Assembly: GCA_964392365.1 (NCBI GenBank)
Contig: CAYMPH010000010.1
Span: forward strand, 2,146-66,145
Direction of reading: 5' to 3'
From: an uncultured Leptospirales bacterium
GTDB lineage: Bacteria; Spirochaetota; UBA4802; UBA5550
Length of the DNA: 64,000 nucleotides
Made by a program: the position numbers and the translations under genes. Of the stretch, positions 39,528 to 57,575 are shown in pieces. The first letter of the stretch is position 1. Each line of letters opens with the position of its first letter. The notes beneath the pieces were generated by a model that saw only the letters and a list, made by a program, of their open reading frames with translations, ran no database searches and was not told the origin of the DNA.

Positions 39528-39970
39528 AATGCATAAACAGATATTGCTTAATATACAGTGATTTAGAACAATAAACTCAAATAATAAACAAATCAATAGC
39601 AAAAAACTCTAAAAATTATAGAATTATATTAAATGTTATAGAGTTACATAGAGTGATTTACATTTTTATACAACGTTTATACAACGATTTTCTTTATACA
39701 AATTTGAATAATAAGTCAGTCAACCCTCCCCTTTTTTCATTATTAATAATTTCTTATTTCAGAAAATATTTCAATTTTATTTTATAATGAATTCATAACC
39801 GTCAAGCATACTTGGGATGTTCTTATCGAAAATTTGAAATTTAAACGTAGAAATAAACTTTCTGATACTGAACAGTTATTGGATTTATCTTTCAGAGCCA
39901 ATAGGGTTAAGGTTAAGAAACATTTTCAGCATTTTGATTGGGATAATCGAGTTAACAAGAATATATGGAA

Positions 39971-40074
39971 GATTGCGAGGTGGAAATAAAAAAACCCCTG
40001 AAGATTTTCAAGGGTTTCGTTTGCTGATAAAAATACATTATTTTTTGATTTAAAATTTGTCAATAAAAAAATTC
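39971..40074. repeat. copy 1 of an ~100-bp intergenic repeat (hairpin terminator plus a ttgctgataaaa...tttgtcaat promoter-like segment)
   Basis: About 80% identical to 40545..40647. It contains an aaaaaacccctgaag..tcaagggttt hairpin. Confidence 0.6.
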
Positions 40075-40093
40075 TAATAAGGAGAAAAACAAT

Positions 40094-40531
40094 ATGAACA
40101 ACCAACAGTTAATGAAAATTCGTGAAATTAAATACATATACGGCAAATCAGTAAAAATGCAAAATCTATCTAATCCTGAAGATGTTGCCGAATTTTTCCG
40201 CAAAATATGCTGTCCTGTAAAAGAACAATTTACTTGTATCTTCCTGAACAACAAAAATAAAGTTCTGGGATACGAAATTGTTTCTGTGGGAACTATCAAC
40301 GAATCGCTTGTACATCCTCGTGAAGTATTCCGAGGTGCGATACTATTAAGTGCCTCCAATATTATCGTTGCTCACAACCATCCTTCGGGCGACACTAAAC
40401 CTTCGAGAGAAGACATAGAAACTACCAAACGATTAAAAGAATCTGGTAATATTTTAGGAATACCTTTAACTGACCATATAGTTGTTGGGGATGATTCTTA
40501 TTATTCTTTTAGAGAGGAAAATTTGGTTTGA
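40094..40531 (+). CDS. RadC-like JAB-domain protein (DUF2466)
   Basis: HNHPSGDTKPSREDIETTKRL JAMM-like motif. Confidence 0.7.
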   Translation: MNNQQLMKIREIKYIYGKSVKMQNLSNPEDVAEFFRKICCPVKEQFTCIFLNNKNKVLGYEIVSVGTINESLVHPREVFRGAILLSASNIIVAHNHPSGDTKPSREDIETTKRLKESGNILGIPLTDHIVVGDDSYYSFREENLV

Positions 40532-40544
40532 AACTGCCTATAGG

Positions 40545-40647
40545 AATTGAGAGGTTGAAATAAAAAACCCCTGATGTTTATCAAGGGTTTTCTTTGCTGA
40601 TAAAATTACAATATTTTCAAGTTTAAAGTTTGTCAATGATAAATTTA
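40545..40647. repeat. copy 2 of the ~100-bp intergenic repeat
   Basis: See copy 1. Confidence 0.6.
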
Positions 40648-40695
40648 TGTTTCATTTTATTAGATTATATAGAATGATTTACACGGAAGGTACAT

Positions 40696-41586
40696 ATGAA
40701 TAATTCAATACAAATGGAAAAAAATTTTGCAAAGTATTGGATAAATAAATATTGTCCAAATATTTTAAAAATATATGAGCCCAAAAATAATGAATGGAAA
40801 AGAATCAACCAGAAGGTAAAAAATAGAAATAATTTTATTAAGTTACAAAATCAACCATACAACTACGAGTTAACTTTATTTAATTTATTAACAAATATAG
40901 AAGACGACAATTTATCTGAAAATGATAAAAATTACACAAAATGTTATATTGAGTATATAGATAAATTATTTGATGATATCCACACATTACTTCCTGCTTC
41001 TGATAACATTAAATTAAGAAGAACAATTATTAATTTAATGGAAAATTTTGATGTTATTATTCCAAAAGGAAATATACTAAAATCACGATTTAAAGATAAT
41101 TTGGGGGAACTTCAAGCTCTTCATAAATTTCTTATTTCACGTAATTTTAAATTAAAATCTGTTGAAAATAAAAATGAAAGTGGAACATCTTTTGATTTAT
41201 TACTAACTGATATTCAGAATGATAAGTATTCAATTGAAATTGTAAATTATACCGTTGATTTACTAAAATGGGATAATGAAGATGATTTGAAAAAATTTTT
41301 TGGTTATAGATTAGACAAAAAGATTAAAAGTAAAAAATTCACAAATAAAGATATAAAAAATCTTAGTCATTTTTTTCTTGTTAACCTATGGACCAATGAT
41401 AAATTTGAATTACTTGTTAAATTTAAAAACTTTTTTGAAAATTATAATGTCTATGATACATTCAATATAATTTTTAGTGAAACTGTAGCATATAAAATCA
41501 ATGAAACAAAATTTACATTTGAATATGCATCAGTAATTAGTCTGATAAATAATTATAATAATGCAATTATAAAACACTACACATAA
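40696..41586 (+). CDS. hypothetical protein (island cargo)
   Basis: 296 aa, Asn/Lys-rich, with no recognisable motifs. Confidence 0.4.
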   Translation: MNNSIQMEKNFAKYWINKYCPNILKIYEPKNNEWKRINQKVKNRNNFIKLQNQPYNYELTLFNLLTNIEDDNLSENDKNYTKCYIEYIDKLFDDIHTLLPASDNIKLRRTIINLMENFDVIIPKGNILKSRFKDNLGELQALHKFLISRNFKLKSVENKNESGTSFDLLLTDIQNDKYSIEIVNYTVDLLKWDNEDDLKKFFGYRLDKKIKSKKFTNKDIKNLSHFFLVNLWTNDKFELLVKFKNFFENYNVYDTFNIIFSETVAYKINETKFTFEYASVISLINNYNNAIIKHYT

Positions 41587-41672
41587 CGAGCTTGTTGAAT
41601 CAGTCGATTTGACAAATTACTTCTAAATGTGTCGAATTATAAAATAAATAACAATTATTAAAAAGAGGGAAA

Positions 41673-42095
41673 ATGAAAACCGAATCAGAAATAAGAGAAT
41701 ATACCAAGAAATATAAAAACCATCCTGTTCTATCACACGATATGCTTGATGAAGAAACCGAAAAAGAGTTCTTTAAAAATATTCGCCTGAAAATGCGTGA
41801 AATCCGAAAAGAACTTAAAATGACTCAAAGAGAATTTGGAGAAACTGCTGGAATTGACAGACGCTATGTTGCTAAAGTTGAATGTGGCTCACAAAATCCT
41901 TCTTTTAAATTTATCAGAAGTCTCTCAATAAAACATAAGATATCGATGGACTGGCTTCTTTACGGTATAGGGCAGAAGTATGTTGAAGTTGATGAAAAAA
42001 GTTACGGCTCAGAACTTCTTACTTTTAAAAAATTGTTGGAAAACGGAACAAAAGATGATATTGATGTAATAATGAAAATGATTAAAAAGATATAA
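41673..42095 (+). CDS. XRE-family HTH transcriptional regulator
   Basis: LKMTQREFGETAGIDRRYVAKVECGSQNPS helix-turn-helix. Confidence 0.65.
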   Translation: MKTESEIREYTKKYKNHPVLSHDMLDEETEKEFFKNIRLKMREIRKELKMTQREFGETAGIDRRYVAKVECGSQNPSFKFIRSLSIKHKISMDWLLYGIGQKYVEVDEKSYGSELLTFKKLLENGTKDDIDVIMKMIKKI

Positions 42096-42181
42096 TAACA
42101 CTAATTGCCTTGTACTTTAGAGAGTTGGAGCTCAATATACTATTTACGCTGAAATGTTGCAAAATTTCCTAAAGAAAAATT

Positions 42182-43042
42182 ATGAACTATTATACTGAAA
42201 AACCTGAAATAATATTAGATAATTTAACTGAAGTTGAGAAGTGGTTGATAGATATAAAAATCTCAATTACTGGAACTCGATTTGAAGAGATACTTAATTA
42301 TTTTAAATTAATAGTCAAATATAAACAAGAAACATCAATAGAAAATTTTATTAAAATCTACGGATTTGAAATTTATCTTTATACTATGAATGATGCCATT
42401 TCATTTATTGATATATATAAGGGATTTAGTATTAAAAAAGGAAGTTTACCAATAAAAAAAATACGTGAATGTATCAAAGGACCATTAATACCAAGAAATG
42501 AGATATTAGGAGATGCAAATGTAAATAGTCGTAATATATTTTTTGAATTAGAGTTATGTTCAAAAATGATTAGAAATGGTATTTCGATTACAGGTTTTAA
42601 TGATATAAATATTAACTTTGAATTTTACAACATTTTCATTGAATGTAAAAGATTATTAAGCCTATCAAATATATCAAATAATATTAAAATAGCTTATGAG
42701 CAATTAAGTAAAAAACTTTTACATAAAAATGATAGAGGTATTATCGCTCTTACTTTTGATAAAGCTTTTAACCTTGATGATAAATGCTATGAAGCATCAT
42801 CATTGAATGACATTGACATTCAATTAAATAATTTTGGTAATATCTTTATGAAAAATCATTCACATTGCTGGAATTCATTCTTAAATATAAAAATTATTGG
42901 AATAATTCTTTTAATTAAGTTTCCCGCAATTTTCGATGGGAAAATAATTAATTCGCAACAACTTTGTGTTATTTCGTTAAGAAGCGACACGAATGTAAGT
43001 GATAAAAATTTATTACACAGGTTTGCAGAAAAATTAACATAA
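42182..43042 (+). CDS. hypothetical protein
   Basis: 286 aa, directly downstream of the XRE regulator. Unknown function. Confidence 0.4.
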   Translation: MNYYTEKPEIILDNLTEVEKWLIDIKISITGTRFEEILNYFKLIVKYKQETSIENFIKIYGFEIYLYTMNDAISFIDIYKGFSIKKGSLPIKKIRECIKGPLIPRNEILGDANVNSRNIFFELELCSKMIRNGISITGFNDININFEFYNIFIECKRLLSLSNISNNIKIAYEQLSKKLLHKNDRGIIALTFDKAFNLDDKCYEASSLNDIDIQLNNFGNIFMKNHSHCWNSFLNIKIIGIILLIKFPAIFDGKIINSQQLCVISLRSDTNVSDKNLLHRFAEKLT

Positions 43043-43150
43043 AAAATTGAAACATTCATTTACTTCGAACAACGAAATTTTAAGAAAAGTCAAAAAGAAA
43101 CGGGGGTAAAGCAGATAAAAGAAGTCTTCGAGGGTGTCAGGTTATACCCT

Positions 43151-43813
43151 TCACAAAATATTGTCATAATTACTATAATTCCAATTCAATGTTATGTATT
43201 CCATTCCAGGATGTTTTTGTATTTTATTTATTATTGATTCCCGGTGAGCTGCTCCAATAAAAAACAAGCCTCTATTATATTTATGTTTTTCGCTATAACT
43301 GTAAATATTATTTATTATTTCAATTTCACGTTTTTCAATAACATCATTCCATAATTTATAAGTTTGGAATAATTTATCGTCATTTATTTTTTCTAACGCC
43401 TTTGTCATCGATTTATATAATTCATTTTGAAGGTTATTACAATAAATACTATTGAGATATTTAAAACCATACTGTCTTACATAAGATGAATGTGTATCGA
43501 TTAAACTTCGATATTCAAAACTTATAGTTTCTATTCGTTTATGCATATAGTCATTATCTTTAAAAAAAGATGCAGGTATATTAAAATAATCTACTGGTAT
43601 ATGCTCAATTTGATGAGTTTCTAAATACTTATTTATTGTATCCGTTTCTAAATTATTACGAGTTTTATCTTTATAATATGCATCATAAGCAATAGGAGGC
43701 ATTTCTTCAAATATTACTTCAGGATTTATTTTCCCAATAATTTTATACAATTCATAAAGATTACAAATACCACTTTCTTTGTGCACCGTACAAATTAATG
43801 TAATATCATACAT
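43151..43813 (-). CDS. hypothetical protein
   Basis: 220 aa ORF. Confidence 0.4.
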   Translation of the reverse strand: MYDITLICTVHKESGICNLYELYKIIGKINPEVIFEEMPPIAYDAYYKDKTRNNLETDTINKYLETHQIEHIPVDYFNIPASFFKDNDYMHKRIETISFEYRSLIDTHSSYVRQYGFKYLNSIYCNNLQNELYKSMTKALEKINDDKLFQTYKLWNDVIEKREIEIINNIYSYSEKHKYNRGLFFIGAAHRESIINKIQKHPGMEYITLNWNYSNYDNIL

Positions 43814-43943
43814 ATATTACCTTCAAACTGTAAAGAATTTACATTTTATATTTTTTTAAAATCCTACAGCATCTAATTCAACAGATTGACAGATTTTTTT
43901 TCAAAATTTAGATAATATCTTGTTATTTATGTTAACGCTCATA

Positions 43944-44696
43944 TTATCCTCTATATATTACAGATTTAAATCTATATTTTAATCTATGATAATAATGTAC
44001 TATTTTATTTTTTAATCGAGTTGCAGAGCTTTCAGTTTTTCTTTTATAGAATGAGACTATTTCAGAAATGATGTCATAAAACGGGTCTTTAAAATTTCGT
44101 TTATTATGTATAAAATAATCCGGACAAACTCGAAGTGCTGATAAATATTCGCTTTTAACTTCATCATGTGTCATAAACAAAATTTGTTGTGAAAGTTTCT
44201 GTATTCCCTTCGGAAATGAAGTTATATGTGCATTTACAATCTTTAGTAATTCATTGAATTTATCTTTGTATTCTTTTTCATTCAAGTGTGAAACTGGAGA
44301 CATTTCATATAAATTTACGTGCGTAATTTGTTCTATTCCGAATTCTAAAAATGAATTTGCTTCTTCAATTACTTTATTCATAAATTTTTTTCTACTTGAA
44401 AATGTTTTTAACCGATTTGGGTAAAAATTCTTGTAATTAAAATAAAACTCATCAATACTTGATTCAAGATATTTACGAACATATTTTTCTATTTCTTTGT
44501 CTTTATTTATGTACTTTAATTTACGTTTAAGAATAAAAGGATAATAATACAGCTCGTGGGCATATTGATAAACACTTTCAATAGCTTGCGACTGTTTATC
44601 ATTTTTCTTTGAAATAATGTCATAAATGATTTTAACAATTGTGACAAGAAGAGATAAAGCAGCAAGACAAATAGCAAAATCAATTTTGAAATTCAT
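43944..44696 (-). CDS. hypothetical membrane-anchored protein
   Basis: N-terminal TM helix. 250 aa. Confidence 0.4.
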   Translation of the reverse strand: MNFKIDFAICLAALSLLVTIVKIIYDIISKKNDKQSQAIESVYQYAHELYYYPFILKRKLKYINKDKEIEKYVRKYLESSIDEFYFNYKNFYPNRLKTFSSRKKFMNKVIEEANSFLEFGIEQITHVNLYEMSPVSHLNEKEYKDKFNELLKIVNAHITSFPKGIQKLSQQILFMTHDEVKSEYLSALRVCPDYFIHNKRNFKDPFYDIISEIVSFYKRKTESSATRLKNKIVHYYHRLKYRFKSVIYRG

Positions 44697-44767
44697 ATTT
44701 AATTACTACCCTTTCTATAACTAAAATAACAATTATGGAATATTTATTAAAAATTGTCGAATATACA

Positions 44768-45136
44768 TCACTTAACAATTTTCAAAATTTCATCTATATT
44801 CAGTTCAATCGTAGTATCTTTAGCCAGCGGAAAACTATCTGGTAACTTTGTTAAAATATTTCCCCATATAATATCGTTTTCGATTGACTCGACTTCAACA
44901 TCAACATAACCACCATCCGCACGTAAAACCGGTGAAGTAGAGATAAGAAAAAAGATTCTTATGATAACAACGTCGCCTTCATTCAGATTGGAAATATCAA
45001 TGTCATCATATTTTGGAAATTTATCCGGATAAAATCCCTTTTTCTTTGATTTGATTTTAGAGAATATATGATATCCGTTCTCTTCTAAGTCAGCGTTGAA
45101 CTCTTTATGTGGATTTAAATTTGTGGAAGCGGTCAT
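44768..45136 (-). CDS. hypothetical protein
   Basis: 122 aa ORF. Confidence 0.35.
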   Translation of the reverse strand: MTASTNLNPHKEFNADLEENGYHIFSKIKSKKKGFYPDKFPKYDDIDISNLNEGDVVIIRIFFLISTSPVLRADGGYVDVEVESIENDIIWGNILTKLPDSFPLAKDTTIELNIDEILKIVK

Positions 45137-45292
45137 ATATATTACCCTCGATTATATTAAACTAAACAACTCGTATATAAATAAAAACTCTATCATTTAT
45201 TTAATATAAGTTTATATTTTCAACATTCTATATAATATTCTTTCAATGTAAAATTTAATTTTGCCATTTTTAAGCAAAGGAAATATCATTAT

Positions 45293-46192
45293 TCACTCCT
45301 GAATTATATTCTTTTTCAAAAATTCTGAAATATCCATTAGTTCTTCATTTGTTACTATACCATCTTCATAGATTTTTTCTATTTTATCTGAAAGATTTCT
45401 AAGAACGGGTTCATTAGTTACAGGACAAAGAGTAAGCCATTTCTGAAGATAAAAAAGTTCTTTTGCATTTACTTCACCATCAGCAATAATTCCGGAACAG
45501 ATTCCTTGAAGTTCTTTTAAATATAGATTTATCTCTGTTTTACTTTTCTTTTTGCCTTCAACTTTTTTCTTTTCTGGTTCAGTAGTAATTCCTTTTATCT
45601 GCTCCAGGCATTTAATTACAGGTGTCTTCTTTGAAAAGTTTGAAATATTTTCAAAACCAAATATCCCTGCTTTCTCTAATCTTTCTCGGTAAACGGTTCT
45701 AAATAGATTCACAACACTTTCAACGTCATTAAATGCCTTATGAGACTTGCCGCTTGATAGATTAAATTTATTTTTTAAAGTTTCAAGCTGGTAATTTTCT
45801 GTTTCGTCTATTACTCTTCTTGCAAGAGTTAAAGCACAAAATCCTCTTTTACCTGTAACAGGTACCCCCAATCGGTTATATTCTGGTTCTAATACCCTGT
45901 TCCAGTCAAATGAAATGTTATAAGTGACTATTGGATAATCTTTTGCAAAATCATTAAATTCTTTGTGAGCCTTCAAAGGATTCTCACCGAGTTTTCTTAA
46001 ATATTCTCTTGAATATCCGTGGAGAGATTCGGCCATTGGTTCAATTTCAACATCGTGGTTTAAAAGTATTCTAAATGGCTCACCGGCAGGTTCCCAACCA
46101 ATCATTTTTTGAGCTGCAATTTCAACACAGTAAATAGGTAAGCCCAGCCCACTTGTTTCAGTATCAACAATCACCCAGATTTCCTGATTCAT
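45293..46192 (-). CDS. DEDDh 3'-5' exonuclease (DnaQ/RNase T-like) with a ~130 aa C-terminal extension
   Basis: Exo I VIVDTETSGL, Exo II YNISFDWNRV and Exo III HKAFNDVESV. Confidence 0.65.
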   Translation of the reverse strand: MNQEIWVIVDTETSGLGLPIYCVEIAAQKMIGWEPAGEPFRILLNHDVEIEPMAESLHGYSREYLRKLGENPLKAHKEFNDFAKDYPIVTYNISFDWNRVLEPEYNRLGVPVTGKRGFCALTLARRVIDETENYQLETLKNKFNLSSGKSHKAFNDVESVVNLFRTVYRERLEKAGIFGFENISNFSKKTPVIKCLEQIKGITTEPEKKKVEGKKKSKTEINLYLKELQGICSGIIADGEVNAKELFYLQKWLTLCPVTNEPVLRNLSDKIEKIYEDGIVTNEELMDISEFLKKNIIQE

Positions 46193-46539
46193 TGCCTTTT
46201 ACCCCCTGTCGAAGTGCTTTGGTTTACTTAATTAATTCAGTAAATAAAAACACAGTTTCCAAATTAACTGAATACCGTTAAAAACACTCTTTTATGACAG
46301 TATTGTCAATACTAATATATAATATTGTTAAAATTATTAAATGTAAGAATGAGGGTAAGAGAATTTTACAGAATTAATCAATTTTCCGCAGGGCAACCTA
46401 CAATATAGACTTCATCTTTTTTCTCATCTTTATAAGTAGCTACGCTGTTGATATTACTGCTGAATTTGCAGAGTATCTGGCCGTTAATATATTCCGTATG
46501 AAATTCACATTTTAAACATTTTTCAAGTTTCATTTTTAA

Positions 46540-46893
46540 TCACTCTAATGCAATTTTATATTTTAATGTATCAAAGCACATCTCAATTAATTCATATTCA
46601 AACCATTCTTCAAACATTTTAAATGAAATATTTTTTGGTAAATAATTTTCATCCATATACCAACCCCACAATTCGTGTATAAAAATATCCTTATATACCT
46701 TTTTTAGATGTTTGACAATCCCTTCCGGCGATACATCATCAAATTCTTCAATCATATACAATGTTCTGGTTGAATAAATGTTATCCTCCGGAACAATACT
46801 GTCATCGTAGTTATTCACCCAATCAACAAATGGTTTTTTAGGTTTGATTAACAAAAAACTTCTATTGCCGACAAATTTCATATCTTCATCCAT
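46540..46893 (-). CDS. hypothetical protein
   Basis: 117 aa ORF. Confidence 0.35.
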   Translation of the reverse strand: MDEDMKFVGNRSFLLIKPKKPFVDWVNNYDDSIVPEDNIYSTRTLYMIEEFDDVSPEGIVKHLKKVYKDIFIHELWGWYMDENYLPKNISFKMFEEWFEYELIEMCFDTLKYKIALE

Positions 46894-46908
46894 TTTGCTT
46901 TAATTTCT

Positions 46909-47472
46909 TCAATGATAATTTTTAAAACTTTTTTTAAATTCTATTGCACCTTTGATTTTATCATTTATATTGTTAAGTAAATTAATTTTTTCTTTGTTAG
47001 ATGACTTATTTACTATATCAGCAATAACATCTGGAAAAAATCTCATTTCATCATAGGACGTAGAAAGTAATATTCCATCAATGGTATATAAAGCCCTAAT
47101 AATAAATATTAAGAAATTTAATTCAAGAATCACAGAATCTATAAGAACTTGATATTCGTTTTCATTCAATAATATTTTACATTCATCTTTGCTCTTGTCA
47201 ATTTCACTAACAAATTCAGACAAGTCATCCGATGAATCCTGCCAGTTTGTAATTATCCCGTTTTCAAGGCAATCAGAACACTTCCAGATAATTTCTTCTT
47301 TATCCAGTTTTATAACTATATGCCCAGTACATTTTTCAAACCAACATTTTATTGCAGATGATATTTCCATATCCGGTTTATGAGCTGTTGCTGCCATTAT
47401 GATATGACTTACAGCTATAGACATTCTTGATACAGGATAAGTTTTGTTATTTTTCATTATTTCTTGTTTCAA
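46909..47472 (-). CDS. hypothetical protein
   Basis: 187 aa ORF. Confidence 0.35.
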   Translation of the reverse strand: MKQEIMKNNKTYPVSRMSIAVSHIIMAATAHKPDMEISSAIKCWFEKCTGHIVIKLDKEEIIWKCSDCLENGIITNWQDSSDDLSEFVSEIDKSKDECKILLNENEYQVLIDSVILELNFLIFIIRALYTIDGILLSTSYDEMRFFPDVIADIVNKSSNKEKINLLNNINDKIKGAIEFKKSFKNYH

Positions 47473-47779
47473 TCATAAAGTGAGTAAAAACTTTAAAAAC
47501 AGGCTGTTCGTTCTCTTTCCCATATAAACCAAAATGAATTCCCTTGTTATAATATTCAAATGTTTTAACACCACCGTTGTCTTCAAGAATTAATTTTTCA
47601 TATTCCAAAGGCATTCCCAATGATTTATCTCCAAAAACTTTTGATACTTTAAAATTTTGATTCTCGTTTAATATCAATAAAACTTCAGGAGGTACATCAT
47701 TTTCATTAAATTCTATTAATGTAAGGTTATCAATATCTTTCAAGTTGCTTATCATTTTATGAATGTATTTTATTTTCAT
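47447..47779 (-). CDS. hypothetical protein
   Basis: 110 aa ORF overlapping the upstream gene end. Confidence 0.35.
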   Translation of the reverse strand: MKIKYIHKMISNLKDIDNLTLIEFNENDVPPEVLLILNENQNFKVSKVFGDKSLGMPLEYEKLILEDNGGVKTFEYYNKGIHFGLYGKENEQPVFKVFTHFMIETRNNEK

Positions 47780-48018
47780 TTTCTCCCAACAATTTTAAAT
47801 TAAATACCGACAAAGCACATTATTTCACTTTGCCGGTATTTTGCAATTTCATTTTTTAATTCTTATTGAAATATTTTATGTATCTAAAAAATCCCACTCA
47901 TCGCCAAGCACCCACCGTAGAGCAGATAATTTTCCGTTGACCATCCCCCAGTTGAAATCATCCCAAGGACCGAGCTCGCCTGCTTCCTGAACATTTTTGA
48001 GTGTCTTATTCTATGTGT

Positions 48019-48459: not shown

Positions 48460-48523
48460 TTTTTTTTACCGTTCCTTTATATTATAATATATTATATTAA
48501 TTGTTACGTATTTTTTCGTGTTC

Positions 48524-49911: not shown

Positions 49912-50227
49912 GAAAATATTTCGATTCTTTTATTTAACTTCTTCCAGAACATATTCAAAACTGCTTTTTTCTTTCTTATCAAAAATAAATAATAACTAAT
50001 ATAATATATCAACCATAAAATGAATAAGAAGTCAGTATTACTTTTTCCCAATAATAATAATACATTAAACATCTATAAGCCAAAAGTATCTAATTCTTTA
50101 AAACTCATTAATCTGTAGCTCCTATTGCGTCTGATGGCATTTTACAAGTTAATTCTTTTAAAAAGAAAACTATTTGTTCTTATTATTAAATCGCTATTTC
50201 CTTTATCAATTAGTTTCAGAACATAGA

Positions 50228-50277
50228 ATTATCCCTAAACATAATTGATATATTATATTAGTTATTATTATATTTTT
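50228..50277. repeat. ~50-bp direct repeat, copy A (attatccctaaacataattgatatattatattagttattatt...)
   Basis: 42/42 identical, plus ~8 more with one indel, to 52153..52200. Confidence 0.8.
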
Positions 50278-52094
50278 GCTGATTTAAGATATAATTGCAA
50301 ATTAAGTTTTAAATTTTTTTTAACAACAGAATAGGAATTTTCCTGTAAATTTTTATCAACAAACTTAAAAGTAAATTGTTCTGAAATATGAGTTGGAACA
50401 TAAGTTGCTCCTGATTTATATTTATAAATATCAAAAAGTTCTTGAATAATATATTTTTTTGCATCATATAAGCTAATTGTAAAATTATTTTCTTTTTTAA
50501 TTTGCTTAAATTTCTTTATAGAACCAAAGTAGAAATAGTTTTTTGCAAAAACATCTCTAACTTCATTATGTGTTTTTGGAATTCTTGTAAAATTACTTTT
50601 CCTTTGATAGAGATAATTACCGAAAAATAACATCATTATTCCTGGCAATTCATCTAACCATTTCTTTTTCCAATCTACTCTTTTTATATGCTTTTTTACA
50701 ATAACATTTGAAACTCTTCTGATAAGTTTTGAAATATCTTTAACAAAACGGGTATTATCAAAACTAATATCTTCTTTCTTTGTATAAGAAGAGTTATCTA
50801 CTGCGTTTTTCCCAAACTCATAAGCTTTCTTCCATTCATTTTCAAAATCTTTTGTCAAGTCTCTTGAACCATTGTTACAGGATTTTAATATTGATTTAAA
50901 TTTTTCCTTATTTCCTTTTACGTGTCTATAAAGTATAGCAGCTTTGCCTTCTTTATAAAGAATTTGGTATTTTTTCTTTCTTCCTATTTTCATATTTTCA
51001 ATAGAAAAATTTGAATTAGATGATATTTTAGATGATTTTGTGAAAACATCTATTCCCCAGTTCCAGTTGTTCCAGTTTGATTTTTTATTTGAAGATTTTT
51101 CTTCTGGATTAACTGCTTCAATTACTTCAGGAGGAGTTGCTGATTCTTTTACAGATTTCTTTGCTTTTTCTTTTTTTGCATCTTCTTTTTCTTTCTTTGC
51201 TTTTGCTTTTTCTGAAACTTCAGCTAATTTTGATAAATCTACAGCATTTTTTTTAAAATCAAAACCCTTTAGATATTTAGCCAAGCCAGTAAAATCTTCA
51301 TAAATAATAAAATCACCATTTTCATCAAGATAGCCATTATGATATTTCAGGGAGAATGGAAGCCTCTGTGTTCTGTTTTCAATTCTGAAATCGCAGGATA
51401 AATTCTCCGCAAGTTCAAAAAACTCATCAAGTAGATGTAACAGCTCAGAAGAAGGAACTTCATTTGTTCTAAATATAGCGTGAATATGCCCTTCAATGGA
51501 GATTCCGTAATACATTGGAAGTTTATTCTGGAAATATTTTTTTCGCAGCCTTTTAAATATCTTATGCCCATTTTCCATATCAATATCGATTTGAATCATA
51601 GGGAATTTAAGATTTTGCGATAATCCGACTGTATTAAACAAATTTTTTGAATAGCTAAATACTTTACGGGTTTTATCATCAAAATTATTCCAGAATTTCT
51701 TTAATTTATTATATACTACAGGCTTGGAATATAGAGATAGCAATTGCTGTTTGATTCTATTTTCAATCGATTCAGGTGGAATTTTTCTTACAATGCCATT
51801 TTTTTCTTTTACCCTATAAAGATTTAATTCCACTTTAAGCCAAGCTGGTTCCAATTCATAACCTTCTTTTGTTGGTTTTGATTTATATCTAAAGCGGTGC
51901 ATATATGTTGTTCCTTGATTAAAATCAAATCCCAATAATTTCAGAGCAAGAATAAATTTAGAAAAACACCTATTTGTATCTTTTCTAATTTTATCTCTCA
52001 TTTCTTTATTATCCTGGGGTATTATTGCTTTGAATTTAAATAATTTTTTTACAGTTACCTTGCTGTTCCTTTTATTTACTGGTTTCTTTTTCAT
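50268..52094 (-). CDS. putative archaeo-eukaryotic-primase (AEP)-like replication/primase protein
   Basis: 608 aa with QIDIDMENGH (hhhDhD-like), GISIEGHIHAIF (sGxHhH-like) and a Lys/Glu-rich linker. This is a motif-level call only. Confidence 0.35.
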   Translation of the reverse strand: MKKKPVNKRNSKVTVKKLFKFKAIIPQDNKEMRDKIRKDTNRCFSKFILALKLLGFDFNQGTTYMHRFRYKSKPTKEGYELEPAWLKVELNLYRVKEKNGIVRKIPPESIENRIKQQLLSLYSKPVVYNKLKKFWNNFDDKTRKVFSYSKNLFNTVGLSQNLKFPMIQIDIDMENGHKIFKRLRKKYFQNKLPMYYGISIEGHIHAIFRTNEVPSSELLHLLDEFFELAENLSCDFRIENRTQRLPFSLKYHNGYLDENGDFIIYEDFTGLAKYLKGFDFKKNAVDLSKLAEVSEKAKAKKEKEDAKKEKAKKSVKESATPPEVIEAVNPEEKSSNKKSNWNNWNWGIDVFTKSSKISSNSNFSIENMKIGRKKKYQILYKEGKAAILYRHVKGNKEKFKSILKSCNNGSRDLTKDFENEWKKAYEFGKNAVDNSSYTKKEDISFDNTRFVKDISKLIRRVSNVIVKKHIKRVDWKKKWLDELPGIMMLFFGNYLYQRKSNFTRIPKTHNEVRDVFAKNYFYFGSIKKFKQIKKENNFTISLYDAKKYIIQELFDIYKYKSGATYVPTHISEQFTFKFVDKNLQENSYSVVKKNLKLNLQLYLKSAKI

Positions 52095-52152
52095 TTTATT
52101 TTCCTATTTTATTGTATTTTAAATTCTTTCTGCTCAATACTCTAATTAAATT

Positions 52153-52200
52153 ATTATCCCTAAACATAATTGATATATTATATTAGTTATTATTTATTTT
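52153..52200. repeat. ~50-bp direct repeat, copy B
   Basis: See copy A. Confidence 0.8.
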
Positions 52201-52251
52201 TTTAAAAAATAAAAAAGCAGAAAGGGAATTATCCCCCTCTGCCTGGTTTTA

Positions 52252-52836
52252 TTAAGCGGCAATTTGAACATCAATTTCAACATATTTAGAAAAATACTTA
52301 TTAATGATTTTTAAATAATTTTCCAAATTACCACTTTTCCAAATCTCATAAACTATCTTGTCAGAATTTAATTTGAGATATTTTGCCATTGATTCTGCGT
52401 AAAACATTAAGAGTAACAAATCATCAGATTCATTTTTTATGGTAATTCTTAACTTTTCATTTTTCTTCGATTTTAAATGAAGTAATACTCTTTCTGTTCC
52501 TTTTCTTAATTCTTTTTCAGATACTAATTTCTTTAATTCATCCATCGAAATGCTGTTATCAATAACCTCAACGTAATTTGAAAAATATCTATTGAAAACT
52601 TTTAAAAAATTACTTGAACCGGTATTTTTCTTAAGTTCACTATAGATCATATCAAAATCCATATCAAGATAATGACATAAACCCCTCGCATATAAAATTA
52701 ACAACTCTACATCGTTTTCGCCTTTACCATCAGCAATTATTTCAAGTCTCTTACCCGACATTAGATGAAGAACTGTTCTGTCGTGTATATGCTGCAATTG
52801 TTCTTGTTCTTGTTGTTCTAAAAATGTTTTGTTCAT
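52252..52836 (-). CDS. hypothetical protein made of two tandem ~75-aa repeat domains
   Basis: RVLHLMSGKRLEII...FLKVFNRYFSNYVEV is repeated as RVLLHLKSKKNEKLRI...YLKIINKYFSKYVEI. Confidence 0.45.
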   Translation of the reverse strand: MNKTFLEQQEQEQLQHIHDRTVLHLMSGKRLEIIADGKGENDVELLILYARGLCHYLDMDFDMIYSELKKNTGSSNFLKVFNRYFSNYVEVIDNSISMDELKKLVSEKELRKGTERVLLHLKSKKNEKLRITIKNESDDLLLLMFYAESMAKYLKLNSDKIVYEIWKSGNLENYLKIINKYFSKYVEIDVQIAA

Positions 52837-52865
52837 TGGCTTCTCCTTTATAATATTTAATTTTA

Positions 52866-52906
52866 AAAAGGGGTTGGCTTTTTACACCAACCCCTTTGAG
52901 TTTTTA
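52866..52906. terminator. rho-independent terminator downstream of the 52904..53170 gene
   Basis: aggggttgg-cttttacac-ccaacccct hairpin with flanking A- and T-runs. Confidence 0.6.
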
Positions 52907-53170
52907 AGCTTCGTTAAACTTTTCTGCCCTATGACAAATCGTCGCTTCTCTGTACATTATAAGAATATCTGTTAAAATTCCATAAGCTTCATAATCGTTA
53001 GAAGCAACCGCTTGAACTACTTTCATACAGATATAATGAGCTGACAAATCTTTATCATCATATCCTTCTATAACTTTTATTAACTCATCTGTTTTCGCAT
53101 CAATTTCCTCATCGTGTTGCATATCTCTTTTTTTGTTACTTGCATTAATAGTTGTCATTTTTTTCACCAT
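52904..53170 (-). CDS. small hypothetical protein
   Basis: 88 aa ORF. Confidence 0.4.
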   Translation of the reverse strand: MVKKMTTINASNKKRDMQHDEEIDAKTDELIKVIEGYDDKDLSAHYICMKVVQAVASNDYEAYGILTDILIMYREATICHRAEKFNEA

Positions 53171-53600
53171 TTGTTATTGTATTTATTCAAACCGTCAATG
53201 TTGACAGTATCTCAAAAACCTTGTTTATTTTTTTCCCGTTTCAAGTTGTCATATTGAACCTCCTGTTTTTTCCCTGGATATTAATTAGACTGAACAAAAC
53301 GTGCTTTTTATTCCCACTTTTTTGGTTTGGGTTAATTTTTGTTATTTTTTTTAAAAAAAGTAAAAATTGAGGATAAAACTTTTACTTTAAATGGGGTTTG
53401 ATACTGAATTGAAATTTAAAGTTTTAAAATGAGTTAGTTTCAAGTCGTAATTGGAATAGAAAATGGCTGAATTCTCTTCTATATATTACATTTTTATTAA
53501 AAAAATGAAGAAAATATTACTATTTGACAATATTTTAATCACTCGTTAAATGTAAGCATATTAAGACAATAATTTTTATATATGGATAAACTTAATATCA

Positions 53601-54128
53601 ATGGATAATGACAAATTTTTTAAAGAATACCATAAATATATAAGGGCTCTCGTAATTAAATTTTCAAAAAATTCAAGAAATTATGATGATATTGAAGATA
53701 TAATTCAAGGTGCCAATGAAAAATTTCTTAAAGGTGCTCTTGGAAAGTTTAGAGAAGAAAGCAAAATTACAACTTATATATACAGAGTTGTGTATAATCA
53801 CTGGGTTGACTGTATAAAAGAGAAGATTAAAAGAGAAAGAAACGAAGTTTATTCCGATACCATTTTAAATTGGGGTAATATACCTTCCAGTTATAATGAA
53901 GATAATATAGAAAAAAGAGAAATTATTCTGGAAACAATCAATTTTATCAATCCAGATTTAAAAAAAGTAATTGGTAAGCTTTCAATTATAAAAGATAGGA
54001 AACAAGCTGATATAGCTGGAATACTTCAAATAGCTCAAAGTACAGTTTCTAAAAATATTGCAAGTGCAGAGAAAATACTAAAACAAGAAATTATAAAGAA
54101 ATACCCTGATTTAAGAGATAAAATATGA
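53601..54128 (+). CDS. ECF-type RNA polymerase sigma-70 family factor
   Basis: Region 2-like TYIYRVVYNHWVDCIKE and region 4 HTH RKQADIAGILQIAQSTVSKNIASAEKIL. An upstream TTGACA-17-TAAATG promoter is present. Confidence 0.7.
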   Translation: MDNDKFFKEYHKYIRALVIKFSKNSRNYDDIEDIIQGANEKFLKGALGKFREESKITTYIYRVVYNHWVDCIKEKIKRERNEVYSDTILNWGNIPSSYNEDNIEKREIILETINFINPDLKKVIGKLSIIKDRKQADIAGILQIAQSTVSKNIASAEKILKQEIIKKYPDLRDKI

Positions 54129-54682
54129 ATAATATTAGATGCAATGATGAAATGGAGAAGCTTATTTATGCCTATGCTGATGGAACACTCAAATCAGAAA
54201 AAGAAAAAGAAAAAGTAATTTCTCACATTGCAAATTGTGATTCTTGCTTGGATTTAATAGAAACATATTACGATATGCACAAAGAAAAAGAAATTTTAGA
54301 TGATGATAAGAATTGGAAAGATATTCCAATCCACGCCACAGATTACGGAATCAGCGTTCTTGATTCTGAATTATTAACATCAAAATCGAAAATTCAGGTT
54401 TTATCTTCTGGAGATAAGGGATTACCTGTTTCATTAAAACTTCCATTTAACAATGAAGAAATAACTTTAAAATTGATTAAATCCGGTAAAAAAATGACAG
54501 TACAACTCCAGGCACTCAAAGGTGCAAAGAAATATTATTTACTTTATGGAAAAGACAAGTCTATAGCTTCCGAAATTGATGGATTTGTTGTTTTTACAAA
54601 AGTACCGATAAGGTCTTTTATTCTTTCAATTGATATGAAATATTTTATGAGCATTGATGCTTTAAAAGAAAGTGTATTATGA
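54125..54682 (+). CDS. putative soluble zinc-finger (HxxxCxxC) anti-sigma factor
   Basis: N-terminal YAYADGTL...SHIANCDSC motif. Its start overlaps the sigma gene stop (ATGA), and no TM helix is apparent. Confidence 0.55.
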   Translation: MNNIRCNDEMEKLIYAYADGTLKSEKEKEKVISHIANCDSCLDLIETYYDMHKEKEILDDDKNWKDIPIHATDYGISVLDSELLTSKSKIQVLSSGDKGLPVSLKLPFNNEEITLKLIKSGKKMTVQLQALKGAKKYYLLYGKDKSIASEIDGFVVFTKVPIRSFILSIDMKYFMSIDALKESVL

Positions 54683-56297
54683 TATGGGAAGTGTAATTGA
54701 AAAAAAAATTATAAATGAATGGAGAACAATAAAAGACAATGGTGAGAAACGCAAGTTCTATTCAGATAATATTCTTCCAGTAATAATAGAAGTTTTCTCC
54801 GAAGGTATAGAAACAGGAAAGAAAGAAAGAAAAATTATAGCTTACAGCACCCTTATTATTATTTTATCTAATGACGAAAATACCGCTAAAATTCTTTCTA
54901 CAAGTTTAAAAGTTAAAACAGTAATAGTATTTTATACAAAAGAAAAAGAAAACCGATTTAAAAAAAATTTTCATCCTTATCTTTTGAAATATTTTAGCGA
55001 AACATCTATTAAACCAATTCTTCTCGATAGAATAAATCATCAGAATAATATTAAAATTATAAATGAAACTATTAAAAATGTCTCTTTAGAAAAAGGAAGG
55101 ACACTTTGCGATATCACAGGTGGAAAAAAAATTCATTCTGTTCTTCTTGGTATTGCAGCACGGGAATTTAAAATTGACATCTGCTATTTTGATTCAGAAA
55201 ATCTATCAGATAATTTTATGCCACATTTGGGGAAAGAAGTTTTATATATTCACAGAGCCGATACAGGCTCAGTAACTAAAATAGATTCTGCAATTTACTC
55301 TTTACTCAAAATTGGATACAGAAAATTTGATGATTCAAATGAAATTACATATGATATTATTACTAATGATGAATCCTCCAATCTTGGAACAATTAGATTT
55401 AGCGAGGATGATGCCAGAGTATTATCTGAAAAAATAACTGAAAACAATTCAATAATAAATGGAATTATATCAGATGGAAATTCAAATGCAAGGCGAGAAC
55501 TTGTCTCTATTTCAAGAATTATTAAAAGTATTTTAATGTCGCCACCTCTTATTCATCGTATTAGAGAAGATAACTTCAACCGCTTTAAAATTATATTGGA
55601 TGAAGAAATATCAGGAATTCCTTGGGAAATTCCTCTTTCAATGGAGCTAAAAGTTGAACTTCCGATAATCAGAATTCCAAATAAAGTTTATGGGTTAAAT
55701 GAAATCTGCGGATATGAAGAAAATGAGCCTGTTGGTATTCTTTTAATTGAAGGTTCGAGCGAAGGAATTACTGATTTCAAATCATATATTGATAGTGCTT
55801 TTGAAATTTGCTCAAGATTTGAAAATTTCTTTTCAATCAAAGCAGAGAATGCTTCTGAACTTAAGATGTATTTAACTGATAGAAATTGTTTTAAGGTTAT
55901 AATTTATTACGGGCACGCAGAATATTCAAACGAAAAAATGACAACTGGTTGGAAATGTATTGATGGCTCTTTCTTTGGACCTGATTCCTTTAATGTAATG
56001 AGTGGACGGCGTAGTGGAATAATTATCGCAAATGCTTGCGAAAGTGCAAGAAGTGCACCGTTTTTAAAAAATTCGTTTCCATTTGCAACATTATTAAACG
56101 GCTTCAGTACATTCATCGGAACAAATTGGCTTCTTGAAGTAGAAAGAAGTTCAATATTTATAAATACAATGCTTGAAAATCTTATAAAAATGGAATCAAA
56201 GCCTTCCGATTGTTTTAATATAGCAATGAAAACACTCGCTGAAAAATATGGAGCAGCTGATTTGTCAAAATATAACATTGTTTATTACGGTAAATAA
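54672..56297 (+). CDS. two-domain protein: an N-terminal Rossmann-like CARF-like sensor domain and a C-terminal CHAT/caspase-like His-Cys protease domain
   Basis: DITGGKK matches the CARF [DN]x[ST]xxx[RK] signature. The C-terminus has IIYYGHAEY (His) and IIIANACESARS (Cys; CHAT-like ...SAC[EQ][ST]). Its start overlaps the anti-sigma gene end. Confidence 0.5.
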   Translation: MYYDMGSVIEKKIINEWRTIKDNGEKRKFYSDNILPVIIEVFSEGIETGKKERKIIAYSTLIIILSNDENTAKILSTSLKVKTVIVFYTKEKENRFKKNFHPYLLKYFSETSIKPILLDRINHQNNIKIINETIKNVSLEKGRTLCDITGGKKIHSVLLGIAAREFKIDICYFDSENLSDNFMPHLGKEVLYIHRADTGSVTKIDSAIYSLLKIGYRKFDDSNEITYDIITNDESSNLGTIRFSEDDARVLSEKITENNSIINGIISDGNSNARRELVSISRIIKSILMSPPLIHRIREDNFNRFKIILDEEISGIPWEIPLSMELKVELPIIRIPNKVYGLNEICGYEENEPVGILLIEGSSEGITDFKSYIDSAFEICSRFENFFSIKAENASELKMYLTDRNCFKVIIYYGHAEYSNEKMTTGWKCIDGSFFGPDSFNVMSGRRSGIIIANACESARSAPFLKNSFPFATLLNGFSTFIGTNWLLEVERSSIFINTMLENLIKMESKPSDCFNIAMKTLAEKYGAADLSKYNIVYYGK

Positions 56298-56390
56298 AGA
56301 GAAATTTTAGTAAAATATTTTGTTTACCAAAACTATTAATTCTTTAAAAATATTACTTGACAATCGACAACTAATATGCTTAAATAAACT

Positions 56391-56618
56391 ATGGCACAAG
56401 TAAAGATTACAGAGCTTACTTCCTTTTTATCTGTTAGACAAACGGCACAAGAACTTGGATTTTCTAAAGAAGGTATTCGTAAATTAATTCATTCCGGAGA
56501 AATATCACCGGTAAGCAAGGTAGATGATTTTATTCTGATTCCTTCCAAGACGATACAGATGTTTAAAGAGAGTCGAAGAAAACAGAATAATCCTGATAAT
56601 AGATATAAAAAGTTATAA
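56391..56618 (+). CDS. excisionase/AlpA-like HTH DNA-binding protein
   Basis: LSVRQTAQELGFSKEGIRKLIHSGEI helix-turn-helix. 75 aa, directly upstream of the integrase. Confidence 0.55.
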   Translation: MAQVKITELTSFLSVRQTAQELGFSKEGIRKLIHSGEISPVSKVDDFILIPSKTIQMFKESRRKQNNPDNRYKKL

Positions 56619-56625
56619 AAAAAGA

Positions 56626-56653
56626 AAAATGCTGTATAAACAGCATTTTTTAA
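56626..56653 (+). terminator. hairpin between the xis-like and int genes
   Basis: aaatgctgt-ataaa-cagcattt hairpin followed by a T-run. Confidence 0.5.
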
Positions 56654-56702
56654 TATTGCAATAGTTGCCGATTAGCAACTATATTAAAAAGGAGGATATG
56701 GA

Positions 56703-57575
56703 ATGAAAAATAAAAGCATAATATCTATTAATCACAGTAATAAAATCTATTCCCTTTCCTTCGAAGGTTTAAACAGCAACTACAAAAATGATGTTGAAAT
56801 CTTCAACAGATTTGCAGATGGAAACCCGATTACAGCCAACCTTATAAGTGATTTTTTCATCTGGAGAGAAAAGAATGTATCACTTTCAACCCTTCAACGA
56901 AATAAAGCAGCCATAAAACAGGCTTTAAAGCTTTCAATGGGCCAAGGTGCAAAGCTTGGACAGATTGCTCATATAGATGCTTTCTTTAAATCTATAGAAC
57001 AGGGTAAAGGAACTTGTAATAATTCTATAACAGAAAATAAAGTTTTAACAAAAAACCAATTGAAAGAACTTATAGCCAAATCCGGTTTCAAAACAGGTCT
57101 AATAATTCAAGCTTTATATCAAACAGCTACCCGTGTAAGTGAATTATGTAATATAGAACTTAAACGATGCAAGATAATTCAAGATGAAAGTTCTTTTCCA
57201 TATATTCGGATTAAAATTTTCAGACAAAAAACAAACAGTTATGCTGATGTATTTATGGATTATAATCTGTTTGAAAAGATTAAAGCAGCCTACTCCGGAA
57301 AGAAATACCTATTCGAGAAAAACGGAAAGCCTATTTCAAGATTTACAGTACACAGTTTGGTAAAAAGAGCCGGAGCGAAGATAGGAAGAAATGATATACA
57401 CGCCCATACCCTACGCCATTCGTGGGCCTCAAATGCAATTACAACCCTTGGGCTTTCTAAAGTTTCTAAATACCTTTCACACTCATCTCCGGATGTGACT
57501 GCTCGCTACTACTTGCACGGAAATGCGTCCGCTGAAGAAATTATGACGGTAAATAAACTGGAAAATGCTGAATAG
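56703..57575 (+). CDS. tyrosine-type site-specific recombinase/integrase
   Basis: Catalytic residues ATRVSEL (Arg), HAHTLRHSWA (H-x-x-R) and TARYYLH (Tyr). Confidence 0.8.
   Translation: MKNKSIISINHSNKIYSLSFEGLNSNYKNDVEIFNRFADGNPITANLISDFFIWREKNVSLSTLQRNKAAIKQALKLSMGQGAKLGQIAHIDAFFKSIEQGKGTCNNSITENKVLTKNQLKELIAKSGFKTGLIIQALYQTATRVSELCNIELKRCKIIQDESSFPYIRIKIFRQKTNSYADVFMDYNLFEKIKAAYSGKKYLFEKNGKPISRFTVHSLVKRAGAKIGRNDIHAHTLRHSWASNAITTLGLSKVSKYLSHSSPDVTARYYLHGNASAEEIMTVNKLENAE

Follow-up and report, generated by a model that had tools for sequence, protein, structure and literature searches.

A genome-specific, probably composite region beside tRNA-Pro(GGG) in an uncultured Leptospirales bacterium, with a predicted sigma/anti-sigma/CARF-CHAT signalling operon as cargo

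The locus described here lies in a 64,000-nt stretch of DNA from an uncultured Leptospirales bacterium (contig CAYMPH010000010.1; the whole stretch is called the window below), in which a long run of housekeeping genes ends at a tRNA-Pro(GGG) gene and gives way to low-GC, genome-specific DNA. The core upstream of the tRNA includes GlnS, GltX, PtsI, Lon, ClpX, trigger factor, tRNA-Gly, tRNA-Leu and UvrC, together with a ferredoxin-type protein and a TPR protein, and the tRNA gene itself (39453-39528, forward strand; called by ARAGORN, 63.6 bits in Rfam) stands beside uvrC as a conserved anchor that serves as a hotspot in relatives. An earlier note on this DNA, made from the letters of the sequence, had described a switch from housekeeping to hypothetical and mobile-type genes directly after this tRNA, and the gene calls and the drop in GC content both agree with it. 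The same note took the DNA beyond the tRNA for a tRNA-associated island with an excisionase-like gene (xis) and a tyrosine integrase gene (int) at its far end. We believe, with a probability of roughly 55%, that what lies here is a composite, strain-specific region at a tRNA-Pro(GGG) hotspot, carrying as cargo a sigma/anti-sigma/CARF-CHAT signalling operon.

The operon consists of three overlapping genes on the forward strand, the start of the anti-sigma gene lying over the stop codon of the sigma gene, and its end over the start of the CARF-CHAT gene. The first gene (53601-54128) encodes a sigma factor of the extracytoplasmic function (ECF) type, recognized by NCBIfam TIGR02937 (E = 3.7e-19), and the profile of its family matches E. 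coli sigma-E (E = 2e-12). The second (54125-54682) encodes a cytoplasmic zinc-binding (ZAS) anti-sigma factor (Pfam zf-HC2, E = 1.2e-5), in which the residues of a C...HxxxCxxC zinc motif, C6, H34, C38 and C41, are invariant. On reading its sequence we saw no hydrophobic segment, and its conserved, beta-rich C-terminal domain has no solved relative in the PDB. By analogy with known systems, this anti-sigma factor is the predicted substrate of the protease encoded next to it. The TIGR02937 and zf-HC2 matches bear out the sigma and anti-sigma calls of the earlier note.

The third gene (54672-56297) encodes a protein of 541 aa (537 aa in the public gene call, which starts at 54684), assigned as a CARF-CHAT protease from PADLOC and Foldseek matches and from its homologs. 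A CHAT domain had been called before, and although the window protein itself has no Pfam CHAT match, that call is upheld by its relatives: nine homologs of 513-545 aa, at 29-40% identity, carry Pfam CHAT (PF12770), and CHAT was found in 13 homologous ORFs. The N-terminal CARF domain, absent from the earlier calls, is matched by PADLOC CARF models over residues ~19-193 (E = 2e-10 and 1e-9), one of the best being the CARF_LON model. In the family alignment the CARF motif D147-x-TGGKK153 is invariant, as is the GH415 ... C456xSAR signature of CHAT, with its His415/Cys456 dyad. The AlphaFold2 (AF2) model of the protein (predicted local distance difference test score, pLDDT, 80.6) finds Csx29, the TPR-CHAT protease of Craspase, as its top Foldseek match (E = 1.7e-8), while the matches to its N-terminal half are cA4/cA6-binding CARF domains, those of Csm6, Cam1, Can2, Cad1, Card1, Csa3 and ring nucleases; by sequence alone, no close solved structure was found. 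From these motifs and this model, the protein is predicted to be a cyclic oligoadenylate (cOA) sensor and a protease effector in one chain.

The association of the three genes extends well beyond this genome. Homologs of the sigma and anti-sigma factors lie within ~4 kb of the CARF-CHAT gene in 14 of 19 full-length loci drawn from public genome and metagenome sequences (roughly 10 of 15 once loci that appear nearly identical are merged), so the trio is not an accident of this island. Judged from its sequences, it is a small coherent family, found mostly in Spirochaetota, and its conserved linkage makes the system directly testable in vitro. The neighbourhoods of these relatives contain cas1-cas2, RAMP proteins, Cas_APE2256 CARF proteins and WYL proteins, and two of them (L090 and L104) contain CRISPR arrays; Cas10 itself was not identified in the relatives' neighbourhoods. 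More distant CHAT proteins of ~740-780 aa (loci L111-L117, for example L115:8516-12091) have TPR-type regions instead of the CARF domain. Upstream sequence is present in five of these seven loci, and there a sigma gene accompanies the protease in all five and an anti-sigma homolog in four of the five, in the same orientation. In some CARF-CHAT neighbourhoods (L086, L096, L098 and others), five ORFs encode Peptidase_S8 subtilases (best E = 4e-60), so that some variants of the module may include a second protease, recalling the SAVED-CHAT/PCaspase cascade. An ECF-type or otherwise enriched promoter signal around the module was considered and discarded, a consensus scan having returned no more sites than shuffled sequence. 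The literature we searched held no description of the CARF-CHAT fusion or of its linkage to a sigma/anti-sigma pair, the 2020 CARF census (doi 10.1093/nar/gkaa635) lying outside that search, and the 2025 CRISPR classification lists caspase- and Lon-family proteases among cOA effectors in general terms only.

The operon is embedded in a low-GC, genome-specific block that runs from 39562 to 57575 and whose anomaly in the GC and tetranucleotide profiles is strongest at 39-55 kb, fading over 55-57 kb. In 2-kb windows, GC is 0.245-0.30 at ~39-55 kb, versus 0.341 +/- 0.027 in the preceding 39 kb; tetranucleotide distance to the core reaches z = 2-5.6 over the same interval, and composition is near that of the core again at ~55-60 kb (z = 0.7-1.7). 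The compositional profile that the earlier note had proposed therefore reveals a real shift at ~39-55 kb, and not the uniform composition that would have spoken for ordinary chromosome. Gene content tells the same story. Among 79 related loci found by a UvrC search, all from uncultured Leptospirales/Spirochaetota plus Leptospira at ~40% identity, the proteins of 40-64 kb have no counterpart, with one 51-aa Cys-rich ORF excepted, and none of these loci has the same content contiguous with uvrC; the region is accessory, as had been supposed. That ORF (46378-46533) is the sole island product with relatives in the related loci, at 42-46% identity; these relatives sit upstream of uvrC in nine genomes, and by its sequence the island copy may be paralogous to a small, conserved protein of the core.

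A test of presence and absence in 90%-identity clusters drawn from about 15 billion proteins sharpens this picture. For three core genes immediately preceding uvrC, the clusters also contain orthologs from two sister genomes (the metagenome-assembled genome L031 and a 67-kb ENA contig). Ten island genes are singletons, apart from the anti-sigma factor, a near-identical copy of which occurs once, on a 1-kb JGI contig. Beyond int, on its right, another six genes (57662-62959) are singletons, so the genome-specific DNA runs from 39562 to at least 63 kb. At its left end it begins 33 nt after the tRNA, and singletons set against clustered core controls place accessory DNA next to a tRNA gene, as in tRNA islands generally.

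The position of the left edge is given by L031, the closest relative by UvrC (93% identity), which is collinear with the window over 27658-39561 at 87-90% DNA identity (blastn), through tRNA-Pro(GGG) and ~33 nt beyond it. The post-tRNA flank common to both genomes (39529-39561) stops where the blastn high-scoring segment pair ends, which puts the left edge of the genome-specific DNA at ~39561/39562; past 39561 no L031 match exists in the window at the DNA or protein level, and four genes downstream of the L031 tRNA are found, among the related loci, in L031 only. The linkage of uvrC to tRNA-Pro(GGG) is widespread in the clade, and the content downstream is different in every genome. That this tRNA is a genuine integration hotspot is plain from two relatives in particular. 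L001 (12197-13445) has, 94 nt beyond tRNA-Pro(GGG) and on the opposite strand, an ORF for a 360-aa tyrosine recombinase. In L006 (12006-20363), an integrase fragment follows directly after the tRNA, and a 21-nt direct repeat, GTCGCCCCGAAATTAAAGCCT, occurs at 12071 and 20343, enclosing 8.3 kb as an attL/attR pair; the repeat consists of the last 10 nt of the tRNA and 11 nt downstream. Two further loci (L002 and L077) have ~5.8 kb between uvrC and tRNA-Pro(GGG), versus ~75-400 nt in most relatives, a spacing that suggests insertion on the opposite side of the tRNA.

Adjacency to a tRNA gene does not prove integration into it. The earlier note had seen no direct repeat of the tRNA 3' end by eye, and computation confirms this within the window: the 3' 22-mer of the tRNA, with up to 3 mismatches, has only one other match in the 64 kb, in a separate tRNA-Pro(TGG) gene at 13720, and the tRNA region shares no k-mer of 15 nt or longer with any other part of the window. 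Comparison of the left junction with the 225 nt after int gave no match above chance, and direct matches between 57560-58250 and the island interior are at most 14 nt long and of low complexity. Two candidate traces of integration were tried and rejected. The 12-mer TTGCTT[A/T]ATATA at 39544 and 57705, taken as an attachment (att) core, is equalled or beaten by 67% of random windows, and a decayed integrase beside the tRNA was sought by tblastn with the L001 and L006 integrases, which found only the distal int, weakly. Moreover, the homology to L031 extends ~33 nt beyond the tRNA, which places any crossover outside the tRNA gene. The idea of a tRNA-associated island with xis and int thus survives in one half, in that accessory DNA does adjoin a hotspot tRNA, and is unsupported in the other, in that nothing marks the tRNA as the att site of xis/int.

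The earlier note had placed int at the far end of the island, ~17 kb from the tRNA. The gene does sit at the composition boundary, but genome-specific genes continue for at least 5.4 kb further, and an integrase at such a boundary need not mark the end of variable DNA; the end of the island at 57575 is drawn from composition only. The suggestion that the region might be composite, or might end past 57.6 kb, has fared better, given the six singleton genes to the right of int and a GATase_4 gene among them with no ortholog above 60% identity. A comparison with genomes lacking the insertion had also been proposed, and in the two sister genomes no empty site was found, the 7 kb downstream of the tRNA in L031 having no match in the window and the ENA sister contig ending inside uvrC. 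At the int side, independent Logan assemblies from four runs of one study carry 52172-59454 at 100% identity, straight through the junction of int with the right flank, and contain no alternative junction, whether empty site or circle. One of these assemblies, L080, ends on the right at 57740, and this end was considered as an alternative junction and rejected as a coverage gap, since L119 and L121 read through it at 100% and L120 resumes at 57842.

The recombination genes themselves point toward plasmids. The xis candidate (56391-56618, forward strand) is an excisionase-like HTH_17 protein (Pfam PF12728, E = 3e-7), with a match to an NCBIfam excisionase domain (E = 4e-4) under the curated cut-off. 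The int gene (56703-57575, forward strand) encodes a 290-aa Xer-like tyrosine recombinase (Pfam PF00589, E = 7.6e-19) whose best NCBIfam matches are XerA, XerD and XerC, all under cut-off; read by eye, its sequence has an apparently intact R..K..HxxR..H..Y set of catalytic residues and no arm-binding domain. Both earlier calls, of an excisionase-like HTH protein and of a tyrosine integrase, are supported by these Pfam matches. Homologs of int at 45-60% identity lie on short metagenomic contigs, including circular elements of 6,960 and 9,994 bp. The 6,960-bp circle, which carries int with ParA, is represented by three circularly permuted contigs (L083, L084 and L085); the 9,994-bp circle (L081) carries ParA, ParB, a Pfam Prim-Pol protein and int; and the closest int relative (60%) is followed directly by ParA and ParB. 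On annotated replicons, the nearest relatives are on plasmids of Brachyspira hyodysenteriae and Entomospira (34-36%) and on the Leptospira LE1-type plasmid-prophage (26%). L081 and L083-L085 look like small, undescribed Spirochaetota plasmids. The occurrence of int homologs on ParAB circles and plasmids makes this, as far as sequence relationships can tell, a plasmid-type recombinase family, integrative or multimer-resolving, rather than a classical tRNA-targeting one. The segment at 50-57.6 kb is best described as plasmid-derived and not as an intact integrated plasmid, because ParA and ParB were not found in the window and because the plasmid relatives encode no homologs of xis or of the 608-aa protein.

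Two features lie in the interval between xis and int. A terminator-like hairpin (56625-56650) follows xis, and between it and the ribosome-binding site of int lies a perfect palindrome, ATAGTTGC-CGATTA-GCAACTAT (56661-56682), whose 8-bp arms and 6-bp spacer are arranged as in an operator or in the core site of a tyrosine recombinase. The palindrome may bind the recombinase or act as an operator; its reading as a conserved recombination site was dropped, since it is not kept upstream of int in the plasmid relatives.

The 608-aa protein (50268-52094, reverse strand), whose gene lies 4.6 kb from int, is a near-ORFan with only two homologs among 1.84 billion representatives, and it was assigned as a candidate archaeo-eukaryotic primase (AEP)/Prim-Pol-type replicase from motifs and Foldseek. 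In its family, which comprises three sequences only, D170xD172, S199..G202..H205 and D235xR237 are invariant and fit AEP motifs I-III. The AF2 model has an overall pLDDT of 42.6, and its core, residues 163-310 (pLDDT 65-83), is the sole confident part; with this low-confidence model, the top six Foldseek matches are the CAPP Prim-Pol domain (E ~2e-3), with other AEP enzymes lower. The protein has no match in Pfam (PF09250 included), PHROGs or NCBIfam, and no similarity to the Prim-Pol protein of L081. The earlier call of an AEP-like primase thus gains three invariant motifs and a Prim-Pol fold match while lacking any family match, and an AEP-type replicase is plausible rather than established.

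A repeat family of 30-50 nt, confined to the island, surrounds this gene. Copies lie at 48487-48516 (partial), 49966-50012 (inverted), 50228-50277 and 52153-52202, where a pattern search gave three matches versus none expected. The last two copies are in direct orientation and bracket the 608-aa gene, the direct copies lie just upstream of minus-strand gene starts (three starts), and the inverted copy faces a direct one across a 215-nt spacer. The repeats may be shared promoters or operators, an origin element, or remnants resembling the ends of miniature inverted-repeat transposable elements; a copy also accounts for the left end of the independent assembly L080.

Most other island ORFs are without a family assignment in Pfam, PHROGs, PADLOC or NCBIfam, and those that have one largely agree with what had been read from the sequence before. 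A RadC-like JAB domain protein (40094-40531, forward strand) matches Pfam PF04002 (E = 1e-45), and an XRE-family HTH regulator (41673-42095, forward strand) matches Pfam HTH_3 (E = 1.8e-10). A DEDDh 3'-5' exonuclease with an extra C-terminal domain (45293-46192, reverse strand) is recognized by Pfam RNase_T (E = 6e-12), by the PADLOC models DEDDh (E = 6e-20) and PDC-S48 (E = 5e-10), and by PHROGs 192 and 3989. The transposase fragment (49177-49911, forward strand) is an HTH-only product resembling the N-terminus of IS481/IS630 transposases (Pfam HTH_28/23/32; NCBIfam IS481, E = 3.7e-15), its IS481 match spanning only positions 2-111 of a 284-position profile, and neither Pfam nor NCBIfam detected a DDE domain in it. 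All four of these calls had been made in the earlier note. The RadC gene is bracketed by two copies of an 85-nt direct repeat (39989-40073 and 40562-40646, forward strand; 82% identical), each consisting of a GC-rich hairpin (CCCCTGAAGATTTTCAAGGG) followed by an AT-rich, promoter-like stretch, which could be a duplicated terminator-promoter cassette. Searches of 40-57.6 kb with Pfam and PHROGs found no relaxase, type IV secretion, FtsK-like transfer or virion genes. A phage origin of the island was considered and rejected: PHROGs match the exonuclease only, and the island has no relatives in viral contigs.

The right flank (57662-62959) is genome-specific with near-core GC and encodes two hypothetical proteins, a 401-aa hypothetical protein, the GATase_4 protein, an NHL-repeat lipoprotein and an XRE regulator. 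The best non-self homolog of the GATase_4 protein is 60% identical, and its relatives are patchily distributed over Spirochaetota, Deltaproteobacteria, archaea and Ignavibacteria. The predicted lipoprotein (61092-62474), genome-specific at 90% identity, has ~5 NHL repeats that arise from a 174-nt tandem DNA repeat (78% matches) at 61221-62075, and is the source of the tetranucleotide anomaly at 60-63 kb. The flank as a whole was probably accreted earlier, or is a variable segment in its own right. At its far end (62654-63991), the forward-strand XRE gene is convergent with a Peptidase_M78 (ImmA/IrrE-like) gene and a small basic ORF, both on the reverse strand, at the end of the window. XRE/ImmA-type gene pairs are typical of the regulatory switches of mobile elements and prophages, and given this pair, another element may start or continue past 64 kb.

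Overall, we believe these observations are best accommodated by a variable region that extends from ~39562 to at least 63 kb, and possibly past the window, and that would not be one clean, 18-kb, tRNA-integrated element. Its proximal ~17-18 kb, the low-GC block, would be recently acquired mobile-element DNA, the right part of which (~50-57.6 kb) would be the remnant of a small, spirochaete plasmid-like episome, with a candidate AEP replicase, an xis-like gene and an Xer-like recombinase, and with the partition genes of its free relatives missing. Given the insertion sequence (IS) fragment and the lack of att repeats, the region seems to have been rearranged or to have lost the capacity for clean excision. 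The distal block (57.6-64 kb), of near-native GC and equally genome-specific, would be an older accretion at the same hotspot. Several observations weigh against this reading. Neither an empty site (in the two sister genomes) nor att sites (in the 64-kb window) were found, which makes the insertion something that we infer, and the tail of L031 is unique as well, so that either arrangement could be ancestral. The idea of a plasmid remnant draws mainly on the sequence relationships of the integrase family, the missing plasmid counterparts of the xis and 608-aa proteins count against it, as does an AEP assignment made from a model of such low overall confidence, and xis and int look intact enough that they would also fit an element that still functions. 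As for the cargo, five of the 19 CARF-CHAT loci, mostly on short contigs, have no sigma pair, and the 64-kb window itself contains no cas genes (Cas10 included), CRISPR array or cyclase.

The alternative that makes most of the intact recombination genes is a single, discrete integrative element of ~18 kb (39562-57661), inserted by xis/int downstream of tRNA-Pro(GGG), with a core too short or too AT-rich to detect and with attR in the 86-nt gap after int. In such an element xis, int and element end would follow one another as in the canonical lambda-like arrangement, the composition boundary falls at xis/int, the catalytic residues of int and the xis gene look intact, the left breakpoint at 39561 is sharp, and relatives show the tRNA to be a hotspot; we nonetheless consider such an element unlikely, if worth keeping in mind, because its proposed ends share no repeat above chance (the best 12-mer being the one matched by 67% of random windows), because genome-specificity is as marked among the genes to the right of int as among those to its left, because this integrase family is found on free plasmids beside ParAB and not at tRNA genes, and because independent assemblies cross the junction of int and right flank with no alternative junction. 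If no insertion occurred at all, the DNA downstream of the tRNA would be a chromosomal breakpoint that evolves fast, with ancestral genes lost from the relatives or replaced in them, and the recombinase would be an incidental or decaying passenger. The post-tRNA content that differs in every relative, the unique tail of L031, the lack of att sites, and the fact that the assemblies of two sister genomes end at or near tRNA-Pro(GGG) would all be expected in that case; a strong GC and tetranucleotide deviation confined to 39-55 kb, the concentration of mobile-type genes (RadC, IS fragment, xis and int) and the bona fide att-flanked insertion of L006 at the same tRNA would not, and we give this scenario little credence. 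We give still less to an assembly or binning artefact, in which a chromosomal contig would have been joined, at or near the tRNA, to a mobile element or to another organism's DNA. The abrupt change of composition at the left junction (~39.5-40.1 kb), its want of independent assembly coverage, and the breaks of sister assemblies near tRNA-Pro(GGG) are in keeping with such a chimera, but the four Logan runs reproduce 52172-59454 at 100%, including the junction of int with the right flank, the right flank returns to core-like GC, and a join in unique sequence 33 nt past a tRNA is atypical of a repeat-induced chimera; an artefact here would be surprising indeed.

Whichever way the composite region was assembled, a function can be proposed for its cargo from what is observed of it: the architecture of the three genes, their conserved catalytic and ligand-site motifs, their linkage, and the CRISPR association of some relatives. 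The ligand, substrate and regulon, like the history of the island as a whole, are what we infer. For example, consider a cell in which a type III CRISPR Cas10, or a related cyclase encoded elsewhere in the cell, has been set to work. The cyclic oligoadenylate that it makes would bind the CARF domain, CARF binding would activate the caspase-like CHAT domain, CHAT would cleave the cytoplasmic anti-sigma factor, and the freed ECF sigma factor would start a transcriptional response. This four-step mechanism, proposed from its likeness to two known systems, is the most likely one. The setting of the module, beside xis/int and with no cas genes near, raises the question of whether host or element benefits from the signal. 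One speculative possibility, to which we assign a low likelihood, is that the module is an orphan sensor of the mobile element, eavesdropping on the cyclic oligoadenylate alarm of the host, be it from type III CRISPR or from a CBASS-like cyclase, with the element-encoded sigma factor starting a programme that serves the element, which could consist of excision by way of the downstream xis/int, replication from the repeat-flanked AEP-like gene, or counter-defence. If this were true, the module would be an escape or counter-defence circuit rather than a part of host immunity.

As a mobile region, the island is of a familiar and ordinary kind. Integrative elements of the pSAM2 type insert in tRNA-Pro. 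Like tRNA islands and integrative plasmids, the region has low-GC accessory DNA beside a tRNA, and a rep-like gene, xis and int stand in order toward one end. Unlike them, it lacks a tRNA-derived repeat as well as transfer and partition genes, shares with L031 a flank that reaches 33 nt beyond the tRNA, and has a short Xer-like integrase of a plasmid family and genome-specific DNA past int. With the small spirochaete plasmids (L081 and L083-L085), the Brachyspira and Entomospira plasmids and LE1, it shares a related integrase and a primase-type candidate nearby; it differs from them in being part of a chromosomal contig of 137 kb and in having no ParA/ParB.

The sigma/anti-sigma/CARF-CHAT operon, the most notable cargo of the island, is a variation on a known signalling principle. 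Two couplings of CRISPR to transcription are experimentally established, CalpL/T/S, which uses a SAVED-Lon protease, and Craspase with Csx30 and CASP-sigma, which uses a TPR-CHAT protease. In the first, the SAVED-Lon protease cleaves the anti-sigma factor on binding cA4, and both are precedents for the window module (PMC11229360; bioRxiv 10.1101/2023.06.23.546230). As in CalpL-CalpT-CalpS, a predicted cOA sensor fused to a protease, an anti-sigma factor of the cytoplasm and a sigma factor of the ECF type are encoded by three genes, with the same predicted logic; the CARF-CHAT relatives are often CRISPR-linked, and the CARF_LON model is among the best PADLOC matches. The window module is nonetheless an analogue and not a member of that system, having CHAT rather than Lon and a canonical CARF domain (Csm6/Can2-like) rather than SAVED. 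For the C-terminal domain of its ZAS (zf-HC2) anti-sigma factor no relative with a solved structure was found, and the operon in the window belongs to an island, next to xis/int, with cas genes absent from all 64 kb.

The type III-E Craspase system (Cas7-11, Csx29, Csx30, Csx31 and CASP-sigma/RpoE) has in common with the window module a CHAT protease that is genetically coupled to a sigma factor and an inhibitor. Csx29, however, is activated by docking on RNA-bound Cas7-11 and not by a diffusible nucleotide, whereas in the window protein a CARF domain takes the place of the TPR region, implying control by a second messenger. The SAVED-CHAT/PCaspase system of Haliangium (type III-B) likewise fuses CHAT to a cOA sensor and has a sigma gene in its locus (bioRxiv 10.1101/2023.06.23.546230); there, SAVED binds cA3 and the substrate is a second caspase, while the window has no gene for PCaspase, PCi or the kinase. 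The window module thus combines elements of the two established couplings, joining a predicted sensor for a diffusible nucleotide, the CARF domain, to a caspase-like protease and to a pair of zinc-type anti-sigma and ECF sigma factors. If confirmed, it would represent a third architecture for signalling from protease to sigma factor, alongside CalpL/T/S and Craspase, and would provide a compact, ligand-switchable protease with a defined substrate.

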